From Nitrosotalea sp. (GTDB lineage: Archaea; Thermoproteota; Nitrososphaeria; Nitrososphaerales; Nitrosopumilaceae), in contig JBOGRD010000015.1 in assembly GCA_050749405.1 (NCBI GenBank), forward strand, positions 4,581 through 36,580: DNA of 32,000 bases, read 5' to 3'. A program made the position numbers and the translations under genes. This document shows positions 6,514 through 26,245 of the stretch, one piece after another. The notes beneath the pieces were generated by a model that searched no databases, was not told the DNA's origin, and saw only the letters and a program-made list of their open reading frames with translations. Every line of letters begins with the position of its first letter. Position 1 is the first letter of the stretch.

Positions 6514-6590
6514 TTTTAACTCTGACCTACAAAAGCAGATCTAGTAGAAATTCTAGCTATGCGTAAATATTGCGATTTCCTATTTATTGT

Positions 6591-6830
6591 ATGGTCAGCC
6601 TAGGTACAGCAAAATTAGCTGGAGTCATTATGACAATAGGCATAGTTGCCATGGCAGGTACCAACTTAGCCTTTGCACAACAACCATCATGTGGAGAGCA
6701 AGCTTACGGATACATCGGGTGTACTCCACTAGGTGCAGCACAATTGTATGGAGGCGTTTTGGTGGCAGGGGTAGTTGCTTTTGCCATAGCATGGGGAGTA
6801 GCGGGGCGCCAATACCATACGATCCCATAA
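6591..6830 (+). CDS. Small secreted/membrane-anchored 2-Cys protein
   Basis: ATG at 6591 inside track ORF 6570..6830. Signal-like LAGVIMTIGIVAMAGTNLAFA, then QQPSCGEQAYGYIGCTPLG, then a C-terminal hydrophobic helix. Confidence 0.45.
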   Translation: MVSLGTAKLAGVIMTIGIVAMAGTNLAFAQQPSCGEQAYGYIGCTPLGAAQLYGGVLVAGVVAFAIAWGVAGRQYHTIP

Positions 6831-6907
6831 CTTCAACTAAGATCTCAAACCTGAACGGAGTCAATGCCTAGAACAAATCATGATTCATCAACCAAAGGAA
6901 ACAGAAA

Positions 6908-9805: not shown

Positions 9806-9927
9806 AATTATCGAGAATTTTTTAATAGCCAAGATTCGGGTTTACAAGATTCATAACAATATTGTTTACCTAATTGGAATTAGTGAATCCTGTAATGACA
9901 CATACTCAAAGCAAATTACAATCTCTG

Positions 9928-10058
9928 ATTTTTTTCAAGATCAGCAACATATTGCCTGTATGAATTCAGCAGCATATCGTACAAATCAAACAACCTTGAG
10001 GCCGAAGGTCCTAGAATTGCTGCACTGATCTCAGGATCATTTATCATGTTTTCAGGCT
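9928..10058. repeat. 131-bp direct repeat, copy 1
   Basis: Matches 12088..12218 at a constant offset of 2160 bp, with 2 mismatches (9940 and 10028). On the minus strand it covers 11 nt of leader plus the first 40 codons of a 43-aa ORF (10047..9916, MINDPEISAAILGPSASRLFDLYDMLLNSYRQYVADLEKNQRL). Confidence 0.9.
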
Positions 10059-10088
10059 GGCGCAGTTTTTTATTTTCATTGACCTAAC

Positions 10089-10283
10089 TCACTCCAGACT
10101 TTCTGCTAGCTTGTCAAAGGATTGGTTCCATCCCTGCTTCATATTATCTAGCATTGTAAAATTGATTACCTCCGTAGTGGGATATTTCAAAGTCATTTTT
10201 GTCTTGCCGCCTTGATCTTCAAAAGCAATCGGAAACCCTTCATCACAGGCATATCTTTTAATAGTTATGTAACCATAATGTTG
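10089..10283 (-). pseudogene. 3' fragment of an SRPBCC/AHSA1-like gene (about 64 C-terminal codons, no start)
   Basis: Hand translation: QHYGYITIKRYACDEGFPIAFEDQGGKTKMTLKYPTTEVINFTMLDNMKQGWNQSFDKLAESLE. The ending ...GW...F.KLA..LE is typical of this fold family. The frame is closed by a stop at 10284-10286, where the AbiEi region begins. Confidence 0.5.
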
Positions 10284-10295
10284 TTAGAAGACATT

Positions 10296-11117
10296 ATGGT
10301 AGCACAGAAATTAAGACTAGGCCCTACAGAATTAAAGCTATGGCTCACACTGGAGAAGGAAGGGAAGTCTGTCTTCAAGACGGATGACGCGTATAGGATT
10401 TTAGGAACAAGCAAGGACTCTGTGAACACTGCCCTTTACAGGCTCAGAAATAAAGGAAGAATTAGGGAGATAGAACGTGGCAAATACCTCCTGATCCCTG
10501 CCAAATCAGGAATTGAAGGCAAGTGGGCTGAAACGCCCTTTCTTATTGCGTCAGAACTCGTGCATCCACACTACATTGGTTTCTGGTCTGCGCTAAATTA
10601 TTGGGGCATGACAGAACAGGTGCCTGATATAACATATGTAGTTACAACAAAAAGAAGGAAAAAGAAAGAGCTAACATATGGACCAATCAATTTCGAGTTC
10701 ATCACACTTTCAAAAAAGAAATTCTTTGGAATCGTAGAAGAGAAAATCGAGGACGGAGCATTTAACATCTCTTCCAGAGAAAAAACAGTCGTAGATTGTC
10801 TTTTGTATCCGCAGTACAGCGGTGGCATTGACGAAACGATTAAGGGAATATGGGAATCACAGGACGAGCTTGACTTTGAAAAGATTCTTGATTACTCCAA
10901 GAAAATAGATGTGGATGTTGTCACCCGCAGAATTGGATACATACTGGATATGCTTGGAATTAAAAGTGACATTACGGAAAAAATTGCAAAAGAAAAGCCG
11001 AAAGGTTTCATGTGGCTTGACCCAATCGGACCAAAGAAAGTTCTAGATTATGCGAAGAAATATGGTCTTATCATAAACAGGACAAAGAAGGATCTGACTA
11101 GCTGGATGGGATACTAA
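10296..11117 (+). CDS. AbiEi-family antitoxin / wHTH transcriptional regulator (type IV TA)
   Basis: N-terminal wHTH-like LKLWLTLEKEGKSVFKTDDAYRILGTSKDSVNTALYRLRNKGRIREIERGKYLL. Placed directly upstream of an AbiEii gene with a 1-nt stop/start overlap. Start uncertain: ATG 10296 or 10278, while the track start at 10212 is probably too long. Confidence 0.8.
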   Translation: MVAQKLRLGPTELKLWLTLEKEGKSVFKTDDAYRILGTSKDSVNTALYRLRNKGRIREIERGKYLLIPAKSGIEGKWAETPFLIASELVHPHYIGFWSALNYWGMTEQVPDITYVVTTKRRKKKELTYGPINFEFITLSKKKFFGIVEEKIEDGAFNISSREKTVVDCLLYPQYSGGIDETIKGIWESQDELDFEKILDYSKKIDVDVVTRRIGYILDMLGIKSDITEKIAKEKPKGFMWLDPIGPKKVLDYAKKYGLIINRTKKDLTSWMGY

Positions 11118-11911
11118 TGATCAGCAAAGACGAGCTAAAGAGATTGGCGGGAGAGAAAAACATCAATGTGTCATCTCTGAGCAAGGACTATGCTCTTGGA
11201 TGGATCTTGTTTGGAATATCAAAAAGCTCTGTAACAAACAAACTTGTATTCAAGGGAGGAACAGCACTTTCCAAAATCTACTTTCCGGAAAACTGGAGGC
11301 TCTCAGAGGATTTGGACTTCACCATACTTGATACGGAAACTGGTCTTGATTCAATAGTAAAGATACTCAAGAACGAAGTACCCGCTATAATTCAAAGAGA
11401 AAATGGGATGATAGTGGTTTTGAAGGACAGACCACATACCAACGTAGGTTACCTTCAGAGCAGGTTCCAGTATACGGGTCCTCTCGGAAAAGATATTATA
11501 AAGATCGAGATCTCAAGGGAGGAGGTAATTGGCGAATTCAAAATTGAAAGGGTTCCACGTGTTTTTGATTATCCGGAATTTGAGGCATGTGTCTACTCGC
11601 TGAAAGATATTCTTGCTGAAAAGATGCGTTCCATGCTACAGCGCAAGAGGATAAGAGACTATTATGATGTTTGGAGATTGCTGAAAGTAAGAAAGTTCGA
11701 CAAGGAAAAAGTGACGAATCTATTTTTGGAAAAATGCAAGAGCAAAGGAATTCAGTTCAATGATGTGGACCAATTCTTTCCTGATGATCTAGTTAGTACG
11801 CTTGAACCCTATTTGGAAAAAGGACTTGGCAGGTTAAGCAGAGAGAAACTTACTCCCATCCAAACAATTCTTAATGAATTAAAAAAGTCGTTGAAAGAGT
11901 TTCTTGGATGA
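11117..11911 (+). CDS. AbiEii/AbiGii-family nucleotidyltransferase toxin (type IV TA)
   Basis: 264 aa. The motif LVFKGGTALSKIYFPENWRLSEDLDFT matches the family signature (KGGTAL...R.SEDIDF). Confidence 0.85.
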   Translation: MISKDELKRLAGEKNINVSSLSKDYALGWILFGISKSSVTNKLVFKGGTALSKIYFPENWRLSEDLDFTILDTETGLDSIVKILKNEVPAIIQRENGMIVVLKDRPHTNVGYLQSRFQYTGPLGKDIIKIEISREEVIGEFKIERVPRVFDYPEFEACVYSLKDILAEKMRSMLQRKRIRDYYDVWRLLKVRKFDKEKVTNLFLEKCKSKGIQFNDVDQFFPDDLVSTLEPYLEKGLGRLSREKLTPIQTILNELKKSLKEFLG

Positions 11912-12087
11912 AATTCTTATCTCTTATTCCCTGTATTCATCTGACGAAGCAGAGCGACTAATCTCCGAAGGTGGGCAATACGTCGGAACGTTACCAAATG
12001 GAAAGGTAGTCGTCAAAAAGGTGCCCAGTAAAACAGTTTTGGCTGGTCCGTGGGTTACCGCCAGAACTGTAGTGGGCACCAAACCAC

Positions 12088-12218
12088 ATTTTTTTCAAGC
12101 TCAGCAACATATTGCCTGTATGAATTCAGCAGCATATCGTACAAATCAAACAACCTTGAGGCCGAAGGTCCTAGAATTGCTGCACTGCTCTCAGGATCAT
12201 TTATCATGTTTTCAGGCT
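12088..12218. repeat. 131-bp direct repeat, copy 2
   Basis: 129 of 131 positions identical to 9928..10058. On the minus strand the ORF continues into a different tail (…AELEKNVVWCPLQFWR). The upstream context is closed by stops (TAA TGA TGA). Confidence 0.9.
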
Positions 12219-12373
12219 TGCAAGATCATCATTAGGCATGCTTACAGATTGCAATATGTTGTTAAAATTTTGATTGGTTGCTTCACTTCAATAGCAGAAA
12301 GGGGCAACACCATGTTCAAGGTCCCAGTCACAAGTCCCAGTACGATGTTGCCACATTAATAGGAATTAACAGA

Positions 12374-12431
12374 TGCGGTCTACATAACCAAGGGGTTGCC
12401 AGTTCCGATGAATGATGAAGTGTAGACCGCA
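12374..12431. repeat. Perfect 11-bp inverted repeat (TGCGGTCTACA / TGTAGACCGCA) with 36-nt spacer
   Basis: Read directly. Arms at 12374..12384 and 12421..12431. The loop is TAACCAAGGGGTTGCCAGTTCCGATGAATGATGAAG. Confidence 0.8.
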
Positions 12432-12754
12432 GTGATTGTGTTTGTTTTACAATATCTAAGGGTGTTCTATCAATTTTACATATGTTATGTAGAACTATAT
12501 TCCCATGACAGAAATGCTCATGAATTTATTGCAGGCCCACTTTATGTGTACATTTTAAAAGCGCATCACTGATCCCAACTTGTCTGCCTTTACAAAACCA
12601 AAGTAATTGTGAATCTAAAGATAAATGCCATACAATATCATCTTCTAAAATCAAAAATGATTCATGCAATTTTTTGCAATCATTTGAATGCGTTAATCTA
12701 GAATTAACATGACACAAATAATGGCAATGTCTAGCGTCTAACGCGTAAGGATTT

Positions 12755-14074
12755 ATGATATTACAAGATTGGTGGTTCACTACTCTTATGGGAGTAAAAG
12801 AACCCATGAGGCCTCCACTGAAAGGAGACATCAAGACAGATGTCTTGATCGTAGGTGCCGGTGCAGCTGGTCTTGCATCTGCTCTCAGACTTGCAGATTC
12901 GGGAAGAAAAGTTACCTTGATTGACAAAAATATCTGCGGTGGAAGCTCAACAGGCAAGAGCGCAGGTTTTCTTACTCCTGACAGCGAGCTTGAACTATCC
13001 CAGCTGTTGCGCAGATATGGTACAAAGGGTGCAAAGGAATTGTGGGAGGTTGCTGCAAAAGGTGTGGAAATAATGGTATCGAACATCAAAGAGCACAAAA
13101 TAGAGTGTGATCTTCAGGTACAGGACTGTCTTTACATAGGAAAAGGCAAAGGCGGGTGGAAAGATGTCCAAGAAGAGGTAGAGGCACGCAAGAAGCTTGG
13201 ATACTCTAGTACGATATACACAGAATCAGAGGTGCCTTCTGTTCTTGGTTCAAAGGCATATTCTGGAGCAATTAGATACACGGGAACATACGGAGTAAAT
13301 CCACTCCTTTACGCACAGGGAATAAAGGGGGTTCTCTTAGACAAGGGAGTTGAGATCTACGAATCCTCGGAAGCACTCTCCTGTGATGACCATACTGTCC
13401 GTACACATCTTGGATCTGCCACTGCAGACGAGATCATCTTTTGCATTGACAAACCAAAACAAGACATGACAAAATATTATGAGAACGTATATCATGCGCA
13501 GACTTTTCTCTCTGTTAGTGAACCGTTAGGAGATGACGATATTGCAGAGCTCTTCCCCCAAGGCCCGCTACAATGCTGGGACTCTGATCTTATCTATACA
13601 TATTTTCGGCTAACTGGAACAAAGCGGTTGCTAGTTGGAGGAGGAAATATGCTAACAACTTATGCAAAAAATGACACCACAAATTCTCATGTCATAAATC
13701 GAGCCATAGGCAATTTGAAGGAGAAAATTCCTTCAATTAGGAACCTAAGATTCATCCAGTATTGGCAGGGCCGCATCGACATGACACGAGATCTCATTCC
13801 GACCGTAGTGAGGGATCCTGCAAGACCTTGGATTCATTTTGTGCTAGGATGTGTGGGGTTGCCATGGGCTACATTCTGTGGAGATTTTGCCGCAAGAAAT
13901 GTGCTTGACAACAAGGAAATTGACAATGAGAAATTTTACCGATATTTTTCACCTGACAGAAAGTTTCTCATACCAATATGGATGGAAAACATACTAGGCA
14001 AACAGCTAGTCTTTACCATCAATAACGCATGGGCCAAGTACAGGCAAAAAGACACAACAAGTAAAAATCAGTAA
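12755..14074 (+). CDS. FAD-dependent oxidoreductase (DAO/glycine-oxidase-like family)
   Basis: 439 aa. N-terminal dinucleotide-binding motif DVLIVGAGAAGLASALRLADSGRKVTLIDK...GGSSTGKSAG. Confidence 0.85.
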   Translation: MILQDWWFTTLMGVKEPMRPPLKGDIKTDVLIVGAGAAGLASALRLADSGRKVTLIDKNICGGSSTGKSAGFLTPDSELELSQLLRRYGTKGAKELWEVAAKGVEIMVSNIKEHKIECDLQVQDCLYIGKGKGGWKDVQEEVEARKKLGYSSTIYTESEVPSVLGSKAYSGAIRYTGTYGVNPLLYAQGIKGVLLDKGVEIYESSEALSCDDHTVRTHLGSATADEIIFCIDKPKQDMTKYYENVYHAQTFLSVSEPLGDDDIAELFPQGPLQCWDSDLIYTYFRLTGTKRLLVGGGNMLTTYAKNDTTNSHVINRAIGNLKEKIPSIRNLRFIQYWQGRIDMTRDLIPTVVRDPARPWIHFVLGCVGLPWATFCGDFAARNVLDNKEIDNEKFYRYFSPDRKFLIPIWMENILGKQLVFTINNAWAKYRQKDTTSKNQ

Positions 14075-14345
14075 CAATGTTTTCAAGATGGATTAATTTT
14101 GAACAAACAAAAAAAATACTTGTGAACGATTAGTTTGCAACGGATTGTAAATGATTGCCATATTTATGATATGTTGCATTTGCAGAGTTTATGTCGTCTT
14201 TCCTACACTGAATTGACATAGTACACTTGACTTGTACGAATACTGGATGATGGTGCCAAGGCATAAAACTCATCTAATTTGGTTAATCTAGCCTTAATAG
14301 ATATCGTGCATATTATTATCATGATGGGATTTGAGGAATAGAGCC

Positions 14346-14528
14346 ATGTATTATGTAGGAATTGCAGTTGCTGGAGCGGCATTTTTGTTCCTTGTGTTCA
14401 GGGAGGCGATGAACCACGCCGCAGTTGGTGTTGTCGGAGGCATAGTAGCTGCTGGCGTAGTTGGCGGTTGCGTTATCATTGGATTTTCATCTGAGAAAAA
14501 AGAACAAGAAAAAACCAGTCGCGGTTAG
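14346..14528 (+). CDS. Small two-helix membrane protein
   Basis: ATG inside track ORF 14331..14528: MYYVGIAVAGAAFLFLVF...VGVVGGIVAAGVVGGCVIIGF, followed by an acidic/basic tail. Confidence 0.4.
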   Translation: MYYVGIAVAGAAFLFLVFREAMNHAAVGVVGGIVAAGVVGGCVIIGFSSEKKEQEKTSRG

Positions 14529-14582
14529 ATTGTAGATCCCAAGAAAAGACTAAGTTAAATAAAAAATGGTTCTCTAGTTCAA

Positions 14583-15260
14583 ATGTTGTCAGATTTTGCG
14601 TACATACCGCCCCAAGAAAAGTTCGAGTCTTCAAATATATTTAGATTCATGAAGAAATTTGGAATTAAAACATTAACAGAGTTGCTAGACAGATCAAGAT
14701 CTGACCTAGCCTGGTTCTGGGATGCTGTAAGCGACGATCTAGGCATTGTTTGGGATGAAAAATACAGCAAGGTATTTGATACAAGACTTGGAAAGCCGTG
14801 GCCCAAGTGGTTTGTAAACGGAAGAATCAACATATACAAGTCTTGCGTGGAAAAATTTCTAAAGGTACAGCCAGACAAGATAGCTTACATCTGTCTCTCA
14901 GAAGACAACTGTGAGCGTACTGTAACCTATGCTGAGCTTGACAAAGAGGTTTGTCAATTGGCAAATGCTCTAAAATCACTCGGTGTTGCAAAGGGTGATG
15001 TCGTTGCAATTTACATGCCCATGATTGCAGAAGCTGTATTTGCAATTTTGGCCTGTGCAAAAATTGGAGCCATTCATACAGTCATCTTCTCAGGGTTTAG
15101 TGCGGATTCCTTGAGGATTAGATTGCAAGATTGTAGTGCCAAGATTCTCTTTACAACAGACGGCTTTATCAGAAAAGGAAGACAGGTCTCACAGAAGAAG
15201 GTCGTAGAAAACTCATTGGTTGGGACCAAAGTATCACAAATGGTCAAAGGATTGCCATAA
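14583..15260 (+). pseudogene. Truncated AMP-forming acetyl/acyl-CoA synthetase (N-terminal ~225 codons only)
   Basis: Strong ACS-like N-terminal third: KPWPKWFVNGRINIYKSCVEKF...VTYAELDKEVCQLANALKSLGVAKGDVVAIYMPMIAEAVFAILACAKIGAIHTVIFSGFSADSLRIRLQDCSAKILFTTDG. The ORF stops before the (S/T)GTTGKPKG P-loop. Full-length family members are roughly three times longer. Transposase-derived repeats follow. Confidence 0.7.
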
Positions 15261-15349
15261 TACACATCATCCCATTGGAGTTCTATGGTCTACAACACAA
15301 TTTACTTGATATGATAAATTGTTTACTCTAAATCTCAAATAGACTTTGT

Positions 15350-15414
15350 GGAGTTCAGACCTGTAAGGATTCGAGTATATATCTGGATTCAGACCTATGA
15401 AAGTCAGCTTGCGT
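15350..15414. repeat. R1-related / transposase-derived fragments (two tandem units)
   Basis: GGAGTTCAGACCTGTAAGGATTCGAGT (15350-15376) and GGATTCAGACCTATGAAAGTCAGCTTGCGT (15385-15414). The second aligns with 19271-19300 (GGATGCAGATCTATGAAAGTCTACCTGCGT), the start of the transposase remnant. Confidence 0.6.
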
Positions 15415-15487
15415 TAAAAGTATCATCTATTGTAAGGGTAATTCTTGTTTTGTAGTAGAATGACATCCAAATGCTTTTCAATCAAAA

Positions 15488-16468
15488 ATGTCCTTCAGAT
15501 TCATGCTATCAAGCAAATGCATTCTTGTTATACTAGTGATTTTAATTCTAGGAGTAACAGAACTGCAAGCTTATGGTCAGTTTGGTGATGGGATTTTCAA
15601 TCCTGCTAAAAACGGTAATGGACCATTAGCCCTTTCTGTTTCTCACATGGCTTTGATAAAAGATACTAATGATACAATCGTGAAACTCAGATTATACAAT
15701 GCCAATACTAATCACACAATTCCGCATGTTACATATTTACTAGAAGTAACAAAACATGATAAAATGATCATGATAGATTGGTTTCACTCCCATAGTGGGG
15801 AGTTGACAATGCAAATAACTCCTACTACCACTCTTGGAAAGTGGGTAATTTTGGGAGACCAAGAACCATTTCTCGGCGGATGGATGCAAAAAGACAATAG
15901 TCCCTTACGTATTTACGCACCAATTTTTGAAAAAGGAATATACCATATACATACAGAAATTCTCACCATCTATAACGACAAAAATCTTTTTACCCTTGAT
16001 GAAACACCAAAATTTGATTCTTGGATAAACATGGGGTGCCCTGATGGTTTTGTATCTGTTACAAAATCAAGTGATCACAATGATGTTTGTGTAAAACCTT
16101 CTACAGTGCAGAAGCTTGTTGAACGTGGATGGGGTGTGCTAGTGGAACCAACTGTTAAATCAAACAAGATAATTCAATATGGAACACTTTCTGGTAATGT
16201 ATCTAGAACAGATTACATGCCATGCGTATTACCTTGTAGTAATAGAATTTACTACCCAAGCCCAAATTATGAGGTGGATGTTTTTACAAATGATGGAGTC
16301 ACACTTGTGGGAAAAACTTTCTCTGATGCTCATGCACATTATTCAATACAACTTCCAGCTGGAAATTATACAATCATCAGACATGAATCCATTAAACAGA
16401 ATTACACAGTTTCAGTATTTGCAGGTAAGAACACAGTCTTTAACATCATTTACGGCGATGCTGAATAG
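15488..16468 (+). CDS. Secreted hypothetical protein with C-terminal carboxypeptidase-regulatory-like beta-sandwich
   Basis: 326 aa. Signal peptide (ILVILVILILGVTELQAYG). The C-terminal YEVDVFTNDGVTLVGKTFSDAHAHYSIQLPAGNYTII pattern is typical of CarboxypepD_reg-like domains. Confidence 0.7.
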   Translation: MSFRFMLSSKCILVILVILILGVTELQAYGQFGDGIFNPAKNGNGPLALSVSHMALIKDTNDTIVKLRLYNANTNHTIPHVTYLLEVTKHDKMIMIDWFHSHSGELTMQITPTTTLGKWVILGDQEPFLGGWMQKDNSPLRIYAPIFEKGIYHIHTEILTIYNDKNLFTLDETPKFDSWINMGCPDGFVSVTKSSDHNDVCVKPSTVQKLVERGWGVLVEPTVKSNKIIQYGTLSGNVSRTDYMPCVLPCSNRIYYPSPNYEVDVFTNDGVTLVGKTFSDAHAHYSIQLPAGNYTIIRHESIKQNYTVSVFAGKNTVFNIIYGDAE

Positions 16469-16472
16469 CTAG

Positions 16473-16497
16473 ATCAACCGATAAGGTTAACAGTTCC
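16473..16497. repeat. Repeat R2, copy 2 (ATCAACCGATAAGGTTAACAGTTCC)
   Basis: Begins 5 nt after the stop of 15488..16468. The downstream ~75 nt run without a stop codon into the R1-related fragment at 16549. Confidence 0.7.
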
Positions 16498-16548
16498 CAA
16501 TATAATTATGCTTATTAAAAACCTGTACCGTATTGTCAAAATTCAATT

Positions 16549-16575
16549 GGATTCATACCTGCAAGGATTCGAGTC
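16549..16575. repeat. R1-related fragment (GGATTCATACCTGCAAGGATTCGAGTC)
   Basis: Aligns with 15350-15376 and, with a gap, with copy c. Confidence 0.6.
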
Positions 16576-16647
16576 AATACATAATTCGAGTCTTAAATTA
16601 TGAATGATTCTATTTCATTGAATCATTTTGAGAGAACAAAATCTAGA

Positions 16648-17751
16648 TCATGGAAGTGAAGGTGGAGTTGTTGCTCCAACCGGTGTTGCAGACGCGGTAT
16701 TAGACGGTTCACTTGTTCCAACTGAATTAATTGCCGAGACACGGTAGGTGTAGGTTGTCAGTGGAAGTACATTTGTGTCTGAATAAGTGGTTCCAGTTTT
16801 GCCAGTGTTTGCAACAAGAGTTGACCACGTATTTCCATTGTCAGTTGATCTCTCAATCATGTATCCTGTTATTGGAGTACCACCATTATCGCTTGGTGCA
16901 TTCCAGCTTAGATTGATTTGTAAAAGATTAGCTGTTGCAGTCAATCCGGTTGGAGGTGTTGGTACTACATTGAATGTAGTTGCGGTTGCAGTGTTAGATG
17001 GAGAGCTTGTTCCAACCGAGTTTATTGCAGATACTCTGTATGTGTATGTGGTACTGTGTACAAGTCCTGTATCAGAATATGTTGTTCCAGCAGAACCAGT
17101 ATTAGCTACAATTGTAGTCCAGGTCGTTCCACCATTGGTTGACTTTTCAATCATGTAACCTATGATGGAAGACCCGCCATTGTTTGAAGGTGCAATCCAT
17201 GATAAAGCAACTTGGGCATTACCAGCTGTTGCCCGTAGATTTTGTGGGGCAGATGGTGGCAGATACGGATTTTTCCAATATACATTAAATGTAATTCCAT
17301 TTGTTGTAAACCAATAATACTTGTAGTTTACGTTTGTAGCAGGATTATATGTACCTGGGAAGCCAACGTTTTCACTAAAAGTAAGGTTTTGATTAGGACC
17401 TGCACCAGAACATTGACTTTGGTCATATCCAAGTGTATTGTCGTAAGTCCAAATTTGCCCAGGCTGGGTATTGCCTTGACTACTCTGGTTTGCAACCTTA
17501 ACATTAACTGTCAAGGAGAATGTCTGGTTATTTAGCATCTGAAAGGATACATTGTTTTTCAGCGGATAGTAAGATTGGTTTCCAGCAATTATTGTAGCAT
17601 TGGTAATGTATGCGTTATATTGGTTGGTACAAGATGGCGGACCCATTGCAAATGCATTGTGTGAAATCATGCCAATTGATATTAGGAACAGTGAAGCAAA
17701 AATAAGTATCAGCCAATGATTCCTGCCATTGCTACTTTTCAGTAGATACAA
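16648..17751 (-). CDS. Secreted protein: variable N-domain plus two fibronectin type III domains (tandem paralog 1)
   Basis: 367 aa. Signal peptide ending AFA. Two FN3 repeats (PSAPQNLRATAGNAQVALSWIAPSNNGGSSIIGYMIEKSTNGGTTW...YTYRVSAINSVGTS). TTG start. Confidence 0.85.
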   Translation of the reverse strand: MYLLKSSNGRNHWLILIFASLFLISIGMISHNAFAMGPPSCTNQYNAYITNATIIAGNQSYYPLKNNVSFQMLNNQTFSLTVNVKVANQSSQGNTQPGQIWTYDNTLGYDQSQCSGAGPNQNLTFSENVGFPGTYNPATNVNYKYYWFTTNGITFNVYWKNPYLPPSAPQNLRATAGNAQVALSWIAPSNNGGSSIIGYMIEKSTNGGTTWTTIVANTGSAGTTYSDTGLVHSTTYTYRVSAINSVGTSSPSNTATATTFNVVPTPPTGLTATANLLQINLSWNAPSDNGGTPITGYMIERSTDNGNTWSTLVANTGKTGTTYSDTNVLPLTTYTYRVSAINSVGTSEPSNTASATPVGATTPPSLP

Positions 17752-17927
17752 TGTATGTATTCTAAACTCAATATATATCTCGATATACTAATAATCGCCT
17801 ATAAGATCAATACAGATAATTTCATAATGTTTAGCCAACTGCAAAACAGTGGTTTAAACAGTTTTTTCGAATAACCAACCAAAAATACTTTCTAAAGATA
17901 CTTTTTTGTATTTAGGGAAGACTCAGT

Positions 17928-19067
17928 CTAGGGAAGCGATGACTGCGTTATTGGACCAACGGAAGTTGTGGCTGATGCAATATTCGATGGGGAGCTTGTT
18001 CCAACATCATTGATTGCCGAGACACGGTAGGTGTAGGTTGTAAGTGGAAGTACATTCGTATCAGAATATGTAGTAATTGTACTGCCGGTATTGGTCACAA
18101 GTGTACTCCAAGTAGTACCACCATCAGTTGACCTTTCTATCATGTAACCTGTAATCAGAGTTCCACCGTTGTCACTTGGTGCATTCCAGCTTAGATTGAT
18201 TTGTAAAAGATTAGTTGTTGCAGTCAAACCTGTTGGCGGTGTTGGCACTGTATCAAATGTTCTTGCTGATGCGGTATTGGATGGAAAGCTGGTGCCTATC
18301 GAGTTTATTGCAGAGACTCTATACGTGTAGGTAGTGCTGTGTACAAGTCCAGTATCTGAATAGGTAGTAGAAGTGGATTCGGTGTTAGCAACAACAGTAG
18401 ACCAAGTTGTACCATTGTCTATAGATCTCTCTATCATGTAACCTGTAATTGCAGAACCACCGTTATTTGCAGGAGCTGTCCATGATAGATTGATTTGCGA
18501 TGATGATGTTGCGGTAGCAGAAAGATTTGTTGGTATTCCAGAAGGAGTTATAAACTGAACATTGTATGTTATGTGACCGCCAGGATAAAACCAACTGTAA
18601 AAGTTAACAGATTGTAAATACCCTGGATATGATGGTGTGTTTGGGTTATAAGGCAGATTCCTAGAAACAGTCACGTTTTGGTTAGGACCTACAGTGGTGG
18701 TTGTTCGGTCCGGAATGCAGTGACCATTACCATAAAACCATACATCATCATCGTACCACGTGGTACCGTTAAGTGTATTGCCCTGAGAACTTGTGCTTGG
18801 TGTGTGTATGACAAATTTTACACTATAACTACTGCCAAAATTCACATCAAACGTTACACCCGGATTTGCTATCGCATCAAATGTTTGACTCCCGTTGTTA
18901 ATTATGAAAGACGTTATTGGCCCATCATATCTATTAGTACATGTTCCCGGTGCATCACCCATTGCAAATGCATTGTGTGCAAACATACCAGATAATACTA
19001 AGAATAATGATGCAAAAACAAGTATTAGCCAATGATTCCTGCCATTGCTACTTTTCAGTAGATTCAA
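17928..19067 (-). CDS. Secreted protein: variable N-domain plus two fibronectin type III domains (tandem paralog 2)
   Basis: 379 aa. The N-terminus is near-identical to paralog 1 (LLKSSNGRNHWLIL.FASLFL), and the two FN3 repeats are highly similar at the nucleotide level. TTG start. Confidence 0.85.
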   Translation of the reverse strand: MNLLKSSNGRNHWLILVFASLFLVLSGMFAHNAFAMGDAPGTCTNRYDGPITSFIINNGSQTFDAIANPGVTFDVNFGSSYSVKFVIHTPSTSSQGNTLNGTTWYDDDVWFYGNGHCIPDRTTTTVGPNQNVTVSRNLPYNPNTPSYPGYLQSVNFYSWFYPGGHITYNVQFITPSGIPTNLSATATSSSQINLSWTAPANNGGSAITGYMIERSIDNGTTWSTVVANTESTSTTYSDTGLVHSTTYTYRVSAINSIGTSFPSNTASARTFDTVPTPPTGLTATTNLLQINLSWNAPSDNGGTLITGYMIERSTDGGTTWSTLVTNTGSTITTYSDTNVLPLTTYTYRVSAINDVGTSSPSNIASATTSVGPITQSSLP

Positions 19068-19270
19068 TGTATGTATTCCAAGCTCAATACATATCTCACT
19101 ATGTTAAGAATTTCCTATAAGATCAGTACAGAAGTTTTGTAGAATTCAACTTTGCCAACAAATCACACTTTCCGTTATAACGAGAATTGGGAACTTTTTA
19201 TACGTAATTTAGGGGGATTCCATTTTTACTCTTTATCAACGAACTCGTTTGCTTTTAATTCAATTAGTTT

Positions 19271-19426
19271 GGATGCAGATCTATGAAAGTCTACCTGCGT
19301 CAAATGGATCATAACTACATTCGACCACACATGACTTTAGACGATCAATCTTCTGCGGAAAAATGCGGAATTAAGATTGAAGGTGATGACAAATGGATAA
19401 CATTAGTTCAAAATGCTAGTAAAAAA
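19271..19426 (+). mobile_element. Remnant of the 3' end of a DDE (rve/IS6-like) transposase gene
   Basis: GCRSMKVYLRQMDHNYIRPHMTLDDQSSAEKCGIKIEGDDKWITLVQNASKK matches the conserved C-terminus of integrase-core transposases (YN.IRPH..L...TPAE..GI....NKW..LI). The upstream part is missing or frameshifted. Confidence 0.6.
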
Positions 19427-19471
19427 TATCAACTCAACACCTTCATTAATCTTATATTGCTTCGTTTTTTC

Positions 19472-19678
19472 ATGCTTAATTTAAGAACAGACTTAATTGC
19501 AAGAGTTTGTATTATTACGTCCATTTACTCCATAATTTCCTACTTTGTGATACAGAAGAACTACTCACAAGATCAATTAGCAATGGGTGTTCCAATGCTC
19601 TTTGTTATGTTTGGAATAGTGATACTGATCAGTATTCTGTATGACCTCAGAAGATATCATGTGACAAGTTCCAAATGA
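19472..19678 (+). CDS. Small two-helix membrane protein (paralog 1)
   Basis: ATG inside track ORF 19283..19678: MLNLRTDLIARVCIITSIYSIISYFVIQKN...GVPMLFVMFGIVILISILYDL. Paralogous to 19986..20177. Confidence 0.45.
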   Translation: MLNLRTDLIARVCIITSIYSIISYFVIQKNYSQDQLAMGVPMLFVMFGIVILISILYDLRRYHVTSSK

Positions 19679-19704
19679 TAACGCCCGACGACTTTTGACA
19701 GTGA

Positions 19705-19818
19705 GAATATCCGACATCAATGATACCGAACCCACCTGCCAAAGCCTGCGGGGTCAAGATTGAAGGTGATAATAAATGGCTAACACTCATACAAAACGCA
19801 AGTAGGAGAGAAGCTTAA
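19705..19818 (+). mobile_element. Second remnant of a transposase 3' end
   Basis: IPNPPAKACGVKIEGDNKWLTLIQNASRREA followed by a stop. Homologous to the 19271..19426 remnant. No upstream catalytic domain. Confidence 0.55.
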
Positions 19819-19985
19819 CATACATCAATGTCCTTTATGCCGTATCAGGATGGATCTTGATTATGATTATCCGTTCAAGTATTTTTGGTGTGATGATTGT
19901 AGGATCAAAGTTACTAGATACTTGACTAGATAAAACACTATTGATGATAAGTGTAATTCATTAACCTAAGGACTATCACATCCTT

Positions 19986-20177
19986 ATGCCGGATTTAAGT
20001 CAGAGTCTTATTGTAAGAGTTGTTATTACTACAGCGATCCTCTCAATAATTTCCTACTTTGTGATTCGGAAGAATGTAGTATCACCAGACCGATTAAAAT
20101 GGGCTATTCCAGCCCTCTTTGTTGTCTTTGGAATCTCGATACTAATCCAAATTCTGTATGTCCTCAGCACAAAATAA
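19986..20177 (+). CDS. Small two-helix membrane protein (paralog 2)
   Basis: 63 aa: LIVRVVITTAILSIISYFVIRKN...AIPALFVVFGISILIQILYVL. Matches paralog 1 helix for helix. Confidence 0.5.
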   Translation: MPDLSQSLIVRVVITTAILSIISYFVIRKNVVSPDRLKWAIPALFVVFGISILIQILYVLSTK

Positions 20178-20249
20178 GGTTCTGTATAGTTAACAGTCAA
20201 CGTAAGATCAATTTTAAAATTCTGAGTTTTAGGATTGCCACTTGGTTTG

Positions 20250-20505
20250 TCAAGATGATGTGGGATTCTCTCTAATGGGGTTCCGATCTGCTGTGCGGTT
20301 TGAACCTCGACCCACAAGAAACATGCCTCCGCCAACTAGTATTACGCCGAAAAGCGCTAGACCGCTGGCAATTGGAAACCCAAGCTTAAAACAGTTGGGC
20401 CCACCAAGGCGAGCCGCAAAGAAAAGTGCTCAGCCCTAAGATAAAAAGCACCCATCCAACCAAAGCCAAAGAACCGCCCACGTAACGACCGTATGGATAC
20501 TCCAT
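20250..20505 (-). pseudogene. Possible frameshifted small membrane protein gene in a GC-richer patch
   Basis: Frame 1 gives MEYPYGRYVGGSLALVGWVLFILGLSTFL... and stops at 20386. A second frame continues with the membrane-like LGFPIASGLALFGVILVGGGMFLVGRGS... to a stop at 20250. The frames would join near a CTTTTCTTTG run. Confidence 0.3.
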
Positions 20506-20729
20506 CGTTATTCGCACCCATAAGCTCCTATGCTTTAGATTTATAGATATTTGAACTGTAGGCTCAGTCATAATAGGAATGTCTGTCTTAACCTATTATG
20601 GCAAAGTCAGTACTAATTCTATGATATTGCTATACTTTATTTTTCCAAGCAACAGCTTGAGGCTGGGCTGATGCAGTTAAATGAAAACGGCTTTTTGGTC
20701 AATAACGAAATCTCTTGTTAAATTAGTAA

Positions 20730-21077
20730 TTAGCTATACATCAGTATTCCGGCAATAACAAAAAGGTTTACCACCTCCCAAAGGATGAAGCTTACTACAA
20801 TGGATTTTTCTTTGTGCGCCATGCCGTAGAAAATCCATGGCAGGGTGACGACAAACATCATAATCCACGAGGTGAGAGAAACGCCGCTTGCGTTTTTGGT
20901 GCTGAAAATTTCGTAAACCTGCGGAAGTACCGTAAACGGCCCGACAACGCCGGCAAAGAATGTGATGCGGTCAAGAAAATGCACATAGCGAGGGCTTGAT
21001 TTGGCCGGCACGCTTTGCTTGCCCAGCGCCTCTTTCAGCCGCCGCTCGATTTTGTGTTTAAACCCAAGAAAATGCAT
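20730..21077 (-). CDS. SemiSWEET / PQ-loop family small transporter
   Basis: 115 aa with three helices. TVLPQVYEIFSTKNASGVSLTSWIMMFVVTLPWIFYG is the PQ-loop pattern (PQ...k..s..G.S......W..YG). Visibly GC-richer than neighbouring genes. Confidence 0.75.
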   Translation of the reverse strand: MHFLGFKHKIERRLKEALGKQSVPAKSSPRYVHFLDRITFFAGVVGPFTVLPQVYEIFSTKNASGVSLTSWIMMFVVTLPWIFYGMAHKEKSIVVSFILWEVVNLFVIAGILMYS

Positions 21078-21317
21078 ATCCTTACTGTATCAGTTTGCTC
21101 CTTCACTGTATTTACGCCTTTAGAATTAAAATGCCTGATATGGGATTTATGCTAAACTTTGAGAGATTTGAAAACAATAGTTAGAATAAAACAGATTTCA
21201 TTTTATTTGAAGATGTCATAAGGTGAATCGTCCAAGATTCTGTTTTCTCAAATACAGAAGAAATAAGAAAAATAATTTTACGTATACAGCAAGACAATGT
21301 TTCCACAAACCACAAAA

Positions 21318-21600: not shown

Positions 21601-21629
21601 CGCGTATAGTCTCTATGTATGTGACTGAA
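21601..21629 (-). other. 23S 3' trailer half of the processing helix
   Basis: The reverse complement of 21601-21632 (CAGTTCAGTCACATACATAGAGACTATACGCG) pairs with 24630-24660 (TTCAGTCACATA / internal loop / GACTATACACG). This resembles an archaeal bulge-helix-bulge type processing stem. Confidence 0.6.
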
Positions 21630-24628
<2,999 letters not shown>

Positions 24629-24773
24629 ATTCAGTCACATATTACACGACTATACACGACGATCATCGCTAGTGCCGGGTCTCGACTACCAGCTACGTCC
24701 TTCACCGGATAGTTTCCTATCCAGTTGCATCTTTTGTGAAGAAAGTGTGTGAACCCACACAACCCAATTTTCT
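24629..24773 (-). other. 16S-23S internal transcribed spacer, no tRNA
   Basis: About 145 nt. It is occupied by the 23S 5' stem half (24630-24660) and the 16S 3' stem half (24738-24758). No cloverleaf-compatible sequence was seen. Confidence 0.7.

Positions 24774-26245
<1,472 letters not shown>

Follow-up and report, generated by a model that had tools for sequence, protein, structure and literature searches.

The window analysed here is a stretch of 32,000 nucleotides from Nitrosotalea sp. (contig JBOGRD010000015.1, positions 4,581 to 36,580 of the forward strand), and the subject is a unit of 2160 bp within it, in which an AbiEi/AbiEii toxin-antitoxin pair lies between two long direct repeats. 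The host is a soil ammonia-oxidising archaeon, Nitrosotalea, and all close relatives of the FAD-oxidoreductase encoded at the flank come from Nitrosotalea or from metagenome-assembled genomes (MAGs) of Nitrosopumilaceae. A preliminary description had taken the repeats to bracket an acquired cassette. This part of it does not hold: the repeats are neither cassette ends nor attachment sites but stem from the middle of one host gene, which was split and is duplicated there. By sequence comparison that gene, here called sCC, is a small gene of 78 codons with a predicted coiled-coil product. The features of the unit and its borders are as follows.

9916 to 10071, minus strand: 3' remnant of sCC, codons 28-78 and the native stop, including repeat copy 1 (tblastn with P0127, nucleotide match to L048)
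9928 to 10061, no strand assigned: direct repeat copy 1 (window self-comparison)
10066 to 10244, minus strand: 3' scrap of an SRPBCC/AHSA1 gene, its last ~47-50 codons (stop codon, 10089-10091) followed by 23 nt of 3' flanking DNA
10249 to 10299, plus strand: predicted AbiE promoter/operator region, kept in all AbiE relatives, which diverge upstream of it
10296 to 11117, plus strand: AbiEi antitoxin and putative autorepressor, 273 aa (Pfam, PADLOC)
11117 to 11911, plus strand: AbiEii nucleotidyltransferase toxin (DUF1814), 264 aa (Pfam, PADLOC)
11922 to 12020, plus strand: scrap "X", whose frame SDEAERLISEGGQYVGTLPNGKVVVKK is similar to the C-terminal end of a 77-aa open reading frame (ORF) of Nitrosotalea L012
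12046 to 12087, no strand assigned: scrap "pre-R", which matches intergenic DNA of Nitrosotalea L025 (668-717) and meets repeat copy 2 in a T-run
12088 to 12221, no strand assigned: direct repeat copy 2 (window self-comparison)
12088 to 12292, minus strand: 5' remnant of sCC, with native upstream DNA (12251-12292), the ATG at 12250, codons 1-10 (MPNDDLASLK), a deletion, and codons ~33-75

The direct repeats at 9928-10061 and 12088-12221 are identical at 131 of 134 positions (BLAST E 6e-63 inside the window), their starts are 2160 bp apart, and BLAST finds no third copy in the window. The mismatches are at 9940 (A/C), 10028 (A/C), and 10059 (G/T). Direct repeats of 131 bp, identical at 129 positions, had been described before, and this version is correct and preferable to the one of 134 nt because the third mismatch (10059/12219) sits at a deletion junction. 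On the minus strand the repeat codes for 40 codons (MINDPE...YRQYVA[D/E]LEKN). When the substitutions are polarised by outgroups, the change from E to D is derived in copy 1 and the change from I to S is derived in copy 2; one derived substitution per copy fits divergence after duplication. Between the repeats are the intact AbiEi/AbiEii operon and the SRPBCC scrap.

A 43-aa ORF served as the query of a profile-free HMMER search for homologues of sCC among 1.84 billion proteins. The best match is the 78-aa protein P0127 (E 2e-13, 79% identity), two further homologues are more distant, and sCC has no match to a Pfam or PHROG family. The gene lies on the minus strand between a DsbA-like gene and the FAD-oxidoreductase gene. 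Copy 1 corresponds to residues 28-78 of P0127 (tblastn, 10071 to 9919, 80% identity) and has 83% nucleotide identity to L048 524-665; it is truncated at its 5' end at codon 28 and keeps four native codons past the repeat at either side. Copy 2 matches P0127 at residues 32-74 only and is truncated at its 3' end, in the T-run at 12088. The native upstream DNA and the first ten codons are found to the right of copy 2, where L048 392-473 equals window 12292-12209 (83.5% nucleotide identity), and L048 537-665 equals window 12218-12090 (83.7%). A three-way alignment places a frameshifting deletion of 73 nt between AGCYTGAAAA micro-repeats in copy 2, and L051 and L052 give the same pattern. Copy 2 is the 5' part of the gene, from the promoter to codon 75, and copy 1 is the 3' part, from codon 28 to the stop. 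As the alignments read, the original duplication is that of codons 28-75, an overlap of the two copies of ~144 bp, and a later slippage deletion of 73 nt has shortened the visible repeat to 131-134 bp; the deletion also explains the third "mismatch" (10059/12219) as its own junction. Insertion-duplication had at one stage been rejected on the ground that the right flank of copy 2 seemed unrelated to the gene, and this rejection was overturned, since the 73-nt deletion had concealed the native 5' end.

That the enclosed segment was inserted, as the preliminary description proposed, is supported by four relatives (L048, L051, L052, and L053), in which the flanks form one uninterrupted small gene. 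In L052 a homologue of window 6562-6871 (83% nucleotide identity) lies ~850 bp downstream of sCC, and this shared neighbour gene indicates that sCC is native to this part of the chromosome and did not arrive together with the insert. The contig of the closest relative, L028 (95% amino acid identity), ends within the FAD-oxidoreductase gene, and L027 has the gene order DsbA, aRF1, FAD-oxidoreductase, with no sCC.

Several further observations concern sCC in its own right. In Nitrosotalea L025 (20520-21299), the sCC domain forms the C-terminal tail in a fusion with CDC48_N and CDC48_2 domains, and the usual AAA ATPase domains are missing from the part of this protein that is seen. The fusion hints that sCC works with Cdc48-type N-domains. 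An initial assignment of the repeat as an internal fragment of a CDC48_N-domain protein, based on L025, was dropped once the stand-alone 78-aa gene was found. The uninterrupted homologue in L052 (6001-6237, VFSW01005153.1) has two in-frame stop codons, and sCC seems to be decaying independently in that lineage. In the window (12207-12250, minus strand), the native sCC promoter would, since the deletion, drive a mini-ORF of 10 codons (MPNDDLASLKT, then the stop). The C-terminal half of sCC is encoded by a 50-aa ORF whose ATG overlaps that stop (ATGA); production of a half-protein through re-initiation is speculative. The 43-aa ORF called at 9916-10047 (minus strand) is the tail of the broken gene and probably an annotation artefact.

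The insert itself (10072-12087, ~2.0 kb) is a chain of four or more pieces that are unrelated to one another and sharply bounded. The SRPBCC scrap covers positions 81-125 of the 125 in the Pfam AHSA1 profile, a match that bears out the earlier assignment of a 3' fragment of an SRPBCC gene; a complete domain is absent, and the N-terminal part is found nowhere in the window. The scrap has 84% nucleotide identity to L047 2139-2305 over window 10066-10234 and 80% amino acid identity to P0123, and at the protein level the similarity reaches ~10244 as judged by eye. In L047 the gene is full, broken only by a scaffold gap, and an intact version in a relative, such as the preliminary description had called for, does therefore exist. 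The position given there for the break, 10284, some 12 nt before the AbiEi start at ATG 10296, is not correct. The SRPBCC frame is open to 10283 by accident, the true junction with the AbiE module lies between 10234/10244 and 10249, and the break is ~50 nt upstream of the ATG. Scrap X has 54.5% identity over 33 aa to the ORF in L012 (tblastn/tblastx, E 5e-6), and no Pfam or PHROG match. The pre-R match to L025 extends over window 12046-12094, with 86% identity over 50 nt. An ORF of 151 aa called as a gene at 11904-12359 (plus strand) has no homologues but itself, lies on the wrong strand across both the scraps and the repeat, and is probably an artefact. At the outer junctions the insert and the gene meet in homopolymer runs. 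Outer junction 1 is AAAAAA, common to the SRPBCC 3' flank of L047 and to sCC codons 28-29; outer junction 2 is AAAAAAT, common to sCC codons 73-75 and to the pre-R site of L025.

The gene pair carried by this patchwork is a bona fide AbiE module, and its earlier identification is upheld by both Pfam and PADLOC. The two genes are on the same strand with the antitoxin first, their frames are intact, and stop and start overlap by 1 nt (TAATG). The Pfam similarity of AbiEi is modest (24-28 bits): AbiEi_4 (residues 19-66) scores 24.2 bits, just below the cut-off of 25, and AbiEi_1 (residues 86-218) scores 27.6 bits, above the cut-off of 22.2. The PADLOC profile PDLC02267 matches AbiEi with 271 bits over positions 2-251 of 252. 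AbiEii has 128.6 bits in Pfam and a full-length match of 229 bits in PADLOC. The motifs G47 G48, D65xD67, K169-x6-R176, and D181 are present in AbiEii, and the G-to-D spacing of 18 equals that of G49/D67 in the Streptococcus agalactiae protein. The start of AbiEi at ATG 10296, already preferred in the preliminary description, is conserved in all relatives, while ATG 10278 is not. A TATA-like TTTTAATA at 10256-10263 is conserved, and the similarity of the module to its relatives begins there. A palindrome, CCATAATGT (10273-10281) and ACATTATGG (10291-10299) with an N9 spacer, overlaps the start codon; in L037, L043, and L045 it has the form CATAGTCTTG-N5-CAAGACTATG, reached via two compensatory double changes. 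The dN/dS values of the AbiE genes against relatives are 0.06-0.16, with dS saturated. The module is under strong purifying selection, and as far as its sequence tells the operon looks functional.

In the AbiE family, toxin-antitoxin activity, GTP binding, autorepression dependent on inverted repeats, plasmid stabilisation, and motifs I-IV (G-G/S ... DxD, K..R, D) have been described (PMC3985639). Judged by its sequence, the pair has every feature of the family that can be looked for at this level. Like AbiE of Lactococcus and S. agalactiae, it consists of two overlapping genes in one operon, the antitoxin gene leading, it encodes a DUF1814 nucleotidyltransferase with the conserved motifs, it has an inverted repeat in the promoter, and it lies in horizontally acquired DNA (PMC3985639). 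Unlike the bacterial systems, it has an archaeal host and an archaeal-type TATA promoter; the palindrome is a single pair of 9-11 bp over the start codon in place of two repeats of 23 bp. By analogy with the family, AbiEi presumably represses the operon at the conserved palindrome and should neutralise AbiEii, which, as a GTP-binding DUF1814 nucleotidyltransferase, should arrest growth by nucleotidyl transfer. In bacteria, modules of this kind confer phage defence by abortive infection and stabilise their carrier DNA, and the module here would have these two roles. The toxins of the MenAT systems of Mycobacterium tuberculosis belong to the same DUF1814 superfamily, and these MenT toxins inhibit translation through modification of tRNA acceptor stems (PMC7450476, PMC10435456). 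The ends of tRNA acceptor stems are a plausible target of AbiEii by the same analogy; the COG5340-like type of antitoxin represented by AbiEi matches only some MenA antitoxins. The pair is no new kind of system: it is an ordinary AbiE pair, with a toxin that is already annotated in GenBank.

At E<=1e-10, AbiEii has 1287 homologues; of those with a named source, many are from Nitrosotalea, Nitrosotenuis, Nitrosarchaeum, and other Nitrosopumilaceae; none was found in IMG/VR. The closest AbiEii proteins have 78-80% identity, and the closest AbiE relatives 72-80% at the amino acid level. From ~10249 to 11904 the window has 74-78% nucleotide identity to AbiE loci on ten other contigs, ending at the AbiEii stop. 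The pairing of antitoxin and toxin genes is seen in all relatives. Beyond this span the relatives match neither the window nor one another, and only the two genes and their promoter are common to all; homology to the relatives stops ~190 bp inside each repeat. The contexts of the relatives also vary and include genes for DUF87/VirB4-like and TraG-like ATPases, ThiF/E2-like genes, or core replication genes (RFC, GINS, MCM). The AbiE module itself clearly travels. In four relatives (L037, L039, L040, and L041), a conserved ORF of 148-159 aa stands directly upstream of AbiEi, with DUF87/VirB4-like, TraG-like, and ThiF and E2-like neighbours, and these neighbourhoods probably represent defence islands or conjugative elements in Nitrosopumilaceae.

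Such contexts raise the question of whether the unit is what is left of a larger element, with the repeats as attL and attR of a conjugative or cryptic element reduced to an addictive toxin-antitoxin module. Direct repeats around foreign DNA are the usual scar of an integrase (PMC6563490), relatives of the module have conjugative-element-like neighbourhoods, and the SRPBCC scrap against the AbiE promoter resembles an internal deletion. As in thaumarchaeal integrated elements, foreign DNA lies between direct repeats here, and the toxin-antitoxin cargo and the conjugative-element-like relatives fit the types of cargo known from them; unlike them, the unit has no integrase, casposase, or transposase, its repeats are ~8x the typical att length, and its target is not a tRNA gene (PMC6563490). 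Its size, 2.16 kb, is also far below that of multigene integrase-bearing elements. Thaumarchaeal att sites have a median length of 17 bp, few exceed 25 bp, and the target is normally reconstituted (PMC6563490). The repeat here has 131-144 bp, the target gene is truncated in both copies and is not reconstituted, and the borders of the repeat fall within homopolymer runs that share microhomology with unrelated scraps. Neither the unit nor any scanned ORF of at least 100 aa in the window has an integrase, transposase, or recombinase domain or a remnant of an integrase; the window contains no tRNA gene, and no known RNA was found as a target; a PHROG search returned nothing past a generic regulator; and the repeat DNA pattern has 0 matches in JGI metagenomes and IMG/VR, so that there is no recurrence of the repeat in these collections. 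Descent from a decayed integrase-type element is accordingly improbable. The features of a transposon or insertion sequence are likewise lacking, as there is no transposase, the ends of the unit bear no terminal inverted repeats, and the duplication is ~144 bp long. Of the earlier proposal of a likely mobile defence or addiction cassette, what stands is an AbiE module, within an inserted segment, in a Nitrosotalea genome; the repeats are not its ends, the enclosed DNA is a patchwork of at least four pieces, no recombinase was found, and no other occurrence of the unit or of the repeat came to light.

The best explanation overall, and on balance a probable one, is that sCC was split by a patchwork insert through microhomology-mediated illegitimate recombination, with the AbiE module as cargo. 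As the sequence shows, a patchwork of ~2.0 kb (10072-12087) entered sCC and left ~144 bp of the target (codons 28-75) on both sides, and the slippage deletion of 73 nt in the 5' copy and one point substitution in each copy followed. The joining would have been illegitimate and guided by microhomology, either by template switching in repair or replication or by fill-in of a staggered break. Illegitimate joining is proposed because the A/T homopolymer junctions match both parents, the insert is a chain of unrelated scraps, and there is no recombinase; with microhomology as the guide, one process explains the scrap chain, the homopolymer junctions, and the flanking duplication.

The arrangement also resembles a Campbell-type insertion-duplication, in which one copy keeps the native promoter but is 3'-truncated, the other keeps the native end but is 5'-truncated, direct repeats flank the insert, and homologous recombination can reverse the event. 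Unlike a Campbell-type disruption, the event here is natural, and its junctions suggest microhomology joining. If the Campbell-type route were nevertheless followed, then a circular DNA of at least ~2.16 kb, with an internal sCC fragment of 144 bp between the SRPBCC scrap and pre-R, would have entered sCC by a single RadA crossover, and the reverse crossover would free the circle. The closest AbiE relatives are in mobile-element-like contexts (DUF87/VirB4-like, TraG-like, ThiF/E2), as this origin would suggest, and the k=31 unitig graph discussed below fits integrated and excised states. More steps are needed, however: two prior illegitimate junctions in the donor, circularisation, and then homologous recombination. 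The unit carries no gene for replication or recombination; neither a circle nor a second copy nor a donor context was found; and two NCBI assemblies have the single-nucleotide polymorphisms (SNPs) of the repeats in the phase of the integrated form. A Campbell-type origin is a serious competitor, if an unlikely one.

Illegitimate joining into sCC faces several points that weigh against it, the first of which is that the topology is identical to that of an insertion-duplication, with the 5' copy cut at the 3' end of the fragment and the 3' copy at its 5' end. The junction microhomologies are judged from parental sequences of other species. The relatives with an uninterrupted sCC have DNA that is only 78-83% identical, and no empty site was found in a genome of the same species. 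Among ~30 Nitrosotalea/Nitrosopumilaceae loci obtained by scanning GTDB species representatives with the FAD-oxidoreductase, 0 are syntenic left of ~12570. All assemblies that contain the unit may be from one sample. As for the functional side, to our knowledge there is no experimental study of AbiE in archaea.

Deletion of the unit, or its release as a circle, through the repeats by host homologous recombination is possible in principle. Deletion would lose the operon and leave a single sCC pseudogene that is still frameshifted. As the antitoxin gene would be removed with it, the module probably protects its own locus from loss, and addiction may be behind the persistence of the repeats for long enough to accumulate two substitutions and a deletion. 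A bolder proposal is that the unit is a minimal, integrase-free selfish cassette, made up of AbiE and a captured host piece of 144 bp, that shuttles as a small circle by host recombination and kills post-segregationally on loss; this is a long shot.

The structure depends on the assembly of the repeats, and the sequence recurs unchanged in the NCBI MAG GCA_973421715.1 (a contig of 24,771 bp) and in a second NCBI contig of 41,139 bp. In the PGAP annotation of the 41,139-bp contig the toxin is already named (MGI0088613.1), and a 59-aa "SRPBCC domain-containing protein" (MGI0088611.1) is listed. Exact-protein look-ups of DsbA, AbiEii, and the FAD-oxidoreductase return only the same MAG and one Logan run. 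The Logan unitigs of SRR27067714 contain the same sequence as three unitigs with ends exactly 30 nt away from the SNPs of the repeats, the distance expected for k=31, and the toxin-antitoxin segment is a separate Logan contig of 2133 bp. The k=31 unitig graph of this run fits the integrated and the excised forms equally, while both NCBI assemblies show the SNP phase of the integrated form. If the break of the unitigs at the repeat and the separate contig are read literally, and the data are perhaps from one sample, then the locus could be an artefact in which one chromosomal sCC pseudogene and a separate toxin-antitoxin molecule were threaded together via the identical core of 87 nt. The SNPs of the copies are only 87 nt apart and are phased directly by ordinary reads or large k-mers, the two NCBI assemblies agree, and a molecule of 2.16 kb without a replication gene is implausible as a replicon. 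An assembly artefact is very improbable.

Long direct repeats that flank a defence or toxin-antitoxin module need not be attachment sites, and caution is needed where they are taken as such. With illegitimate joining as the preferred explanation, the locus would record the uptake of a toxin-antitoxin module by an ammonia-oxidising archaeon through patchwork insertion, joined where homopolymer runs gave microhomology, and then the decay of the broken gene by slippage. Within Nitrosopumilaceae, a single AbiE lineage under purifying selection is widespread and often stands beside conjugation-like and ubiquitin-like (ThiF/E2) genes, which is of use in cataloguing the defence and addiction systems of ammonia-oxidising archaea.

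Two neighbouring regions of the window have features of their own, and the first extends toward a further landmark.

21626 to 26244: archaeal rRNA operon

An acetyl-CoA-synthetase-like gene at 14583-15260 is truncated, with ACAS_N and the first ~110 of 384 AMP-binding positions. Similarity to L028 (91.5% nucleotide identity over window 13093-15236) stops at 15236, and the genomes then differ until the rRNA operon; the DNA at 15237-21289 is different from that of L028 and includes two fn3-domain proteins. On this comparison, position 15236 is identified as a second rearrangement breakpoint, ~3 kb from the insert. At 12396-12491, a segment of ~96 nt is 81% identical to L005 6114-6207 on the opposite strand, amid otherwise unalignable intergenic DNA. 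It has no Rfam match, contains a C-box-like ATGATGA, and may be a conserved small RNA.

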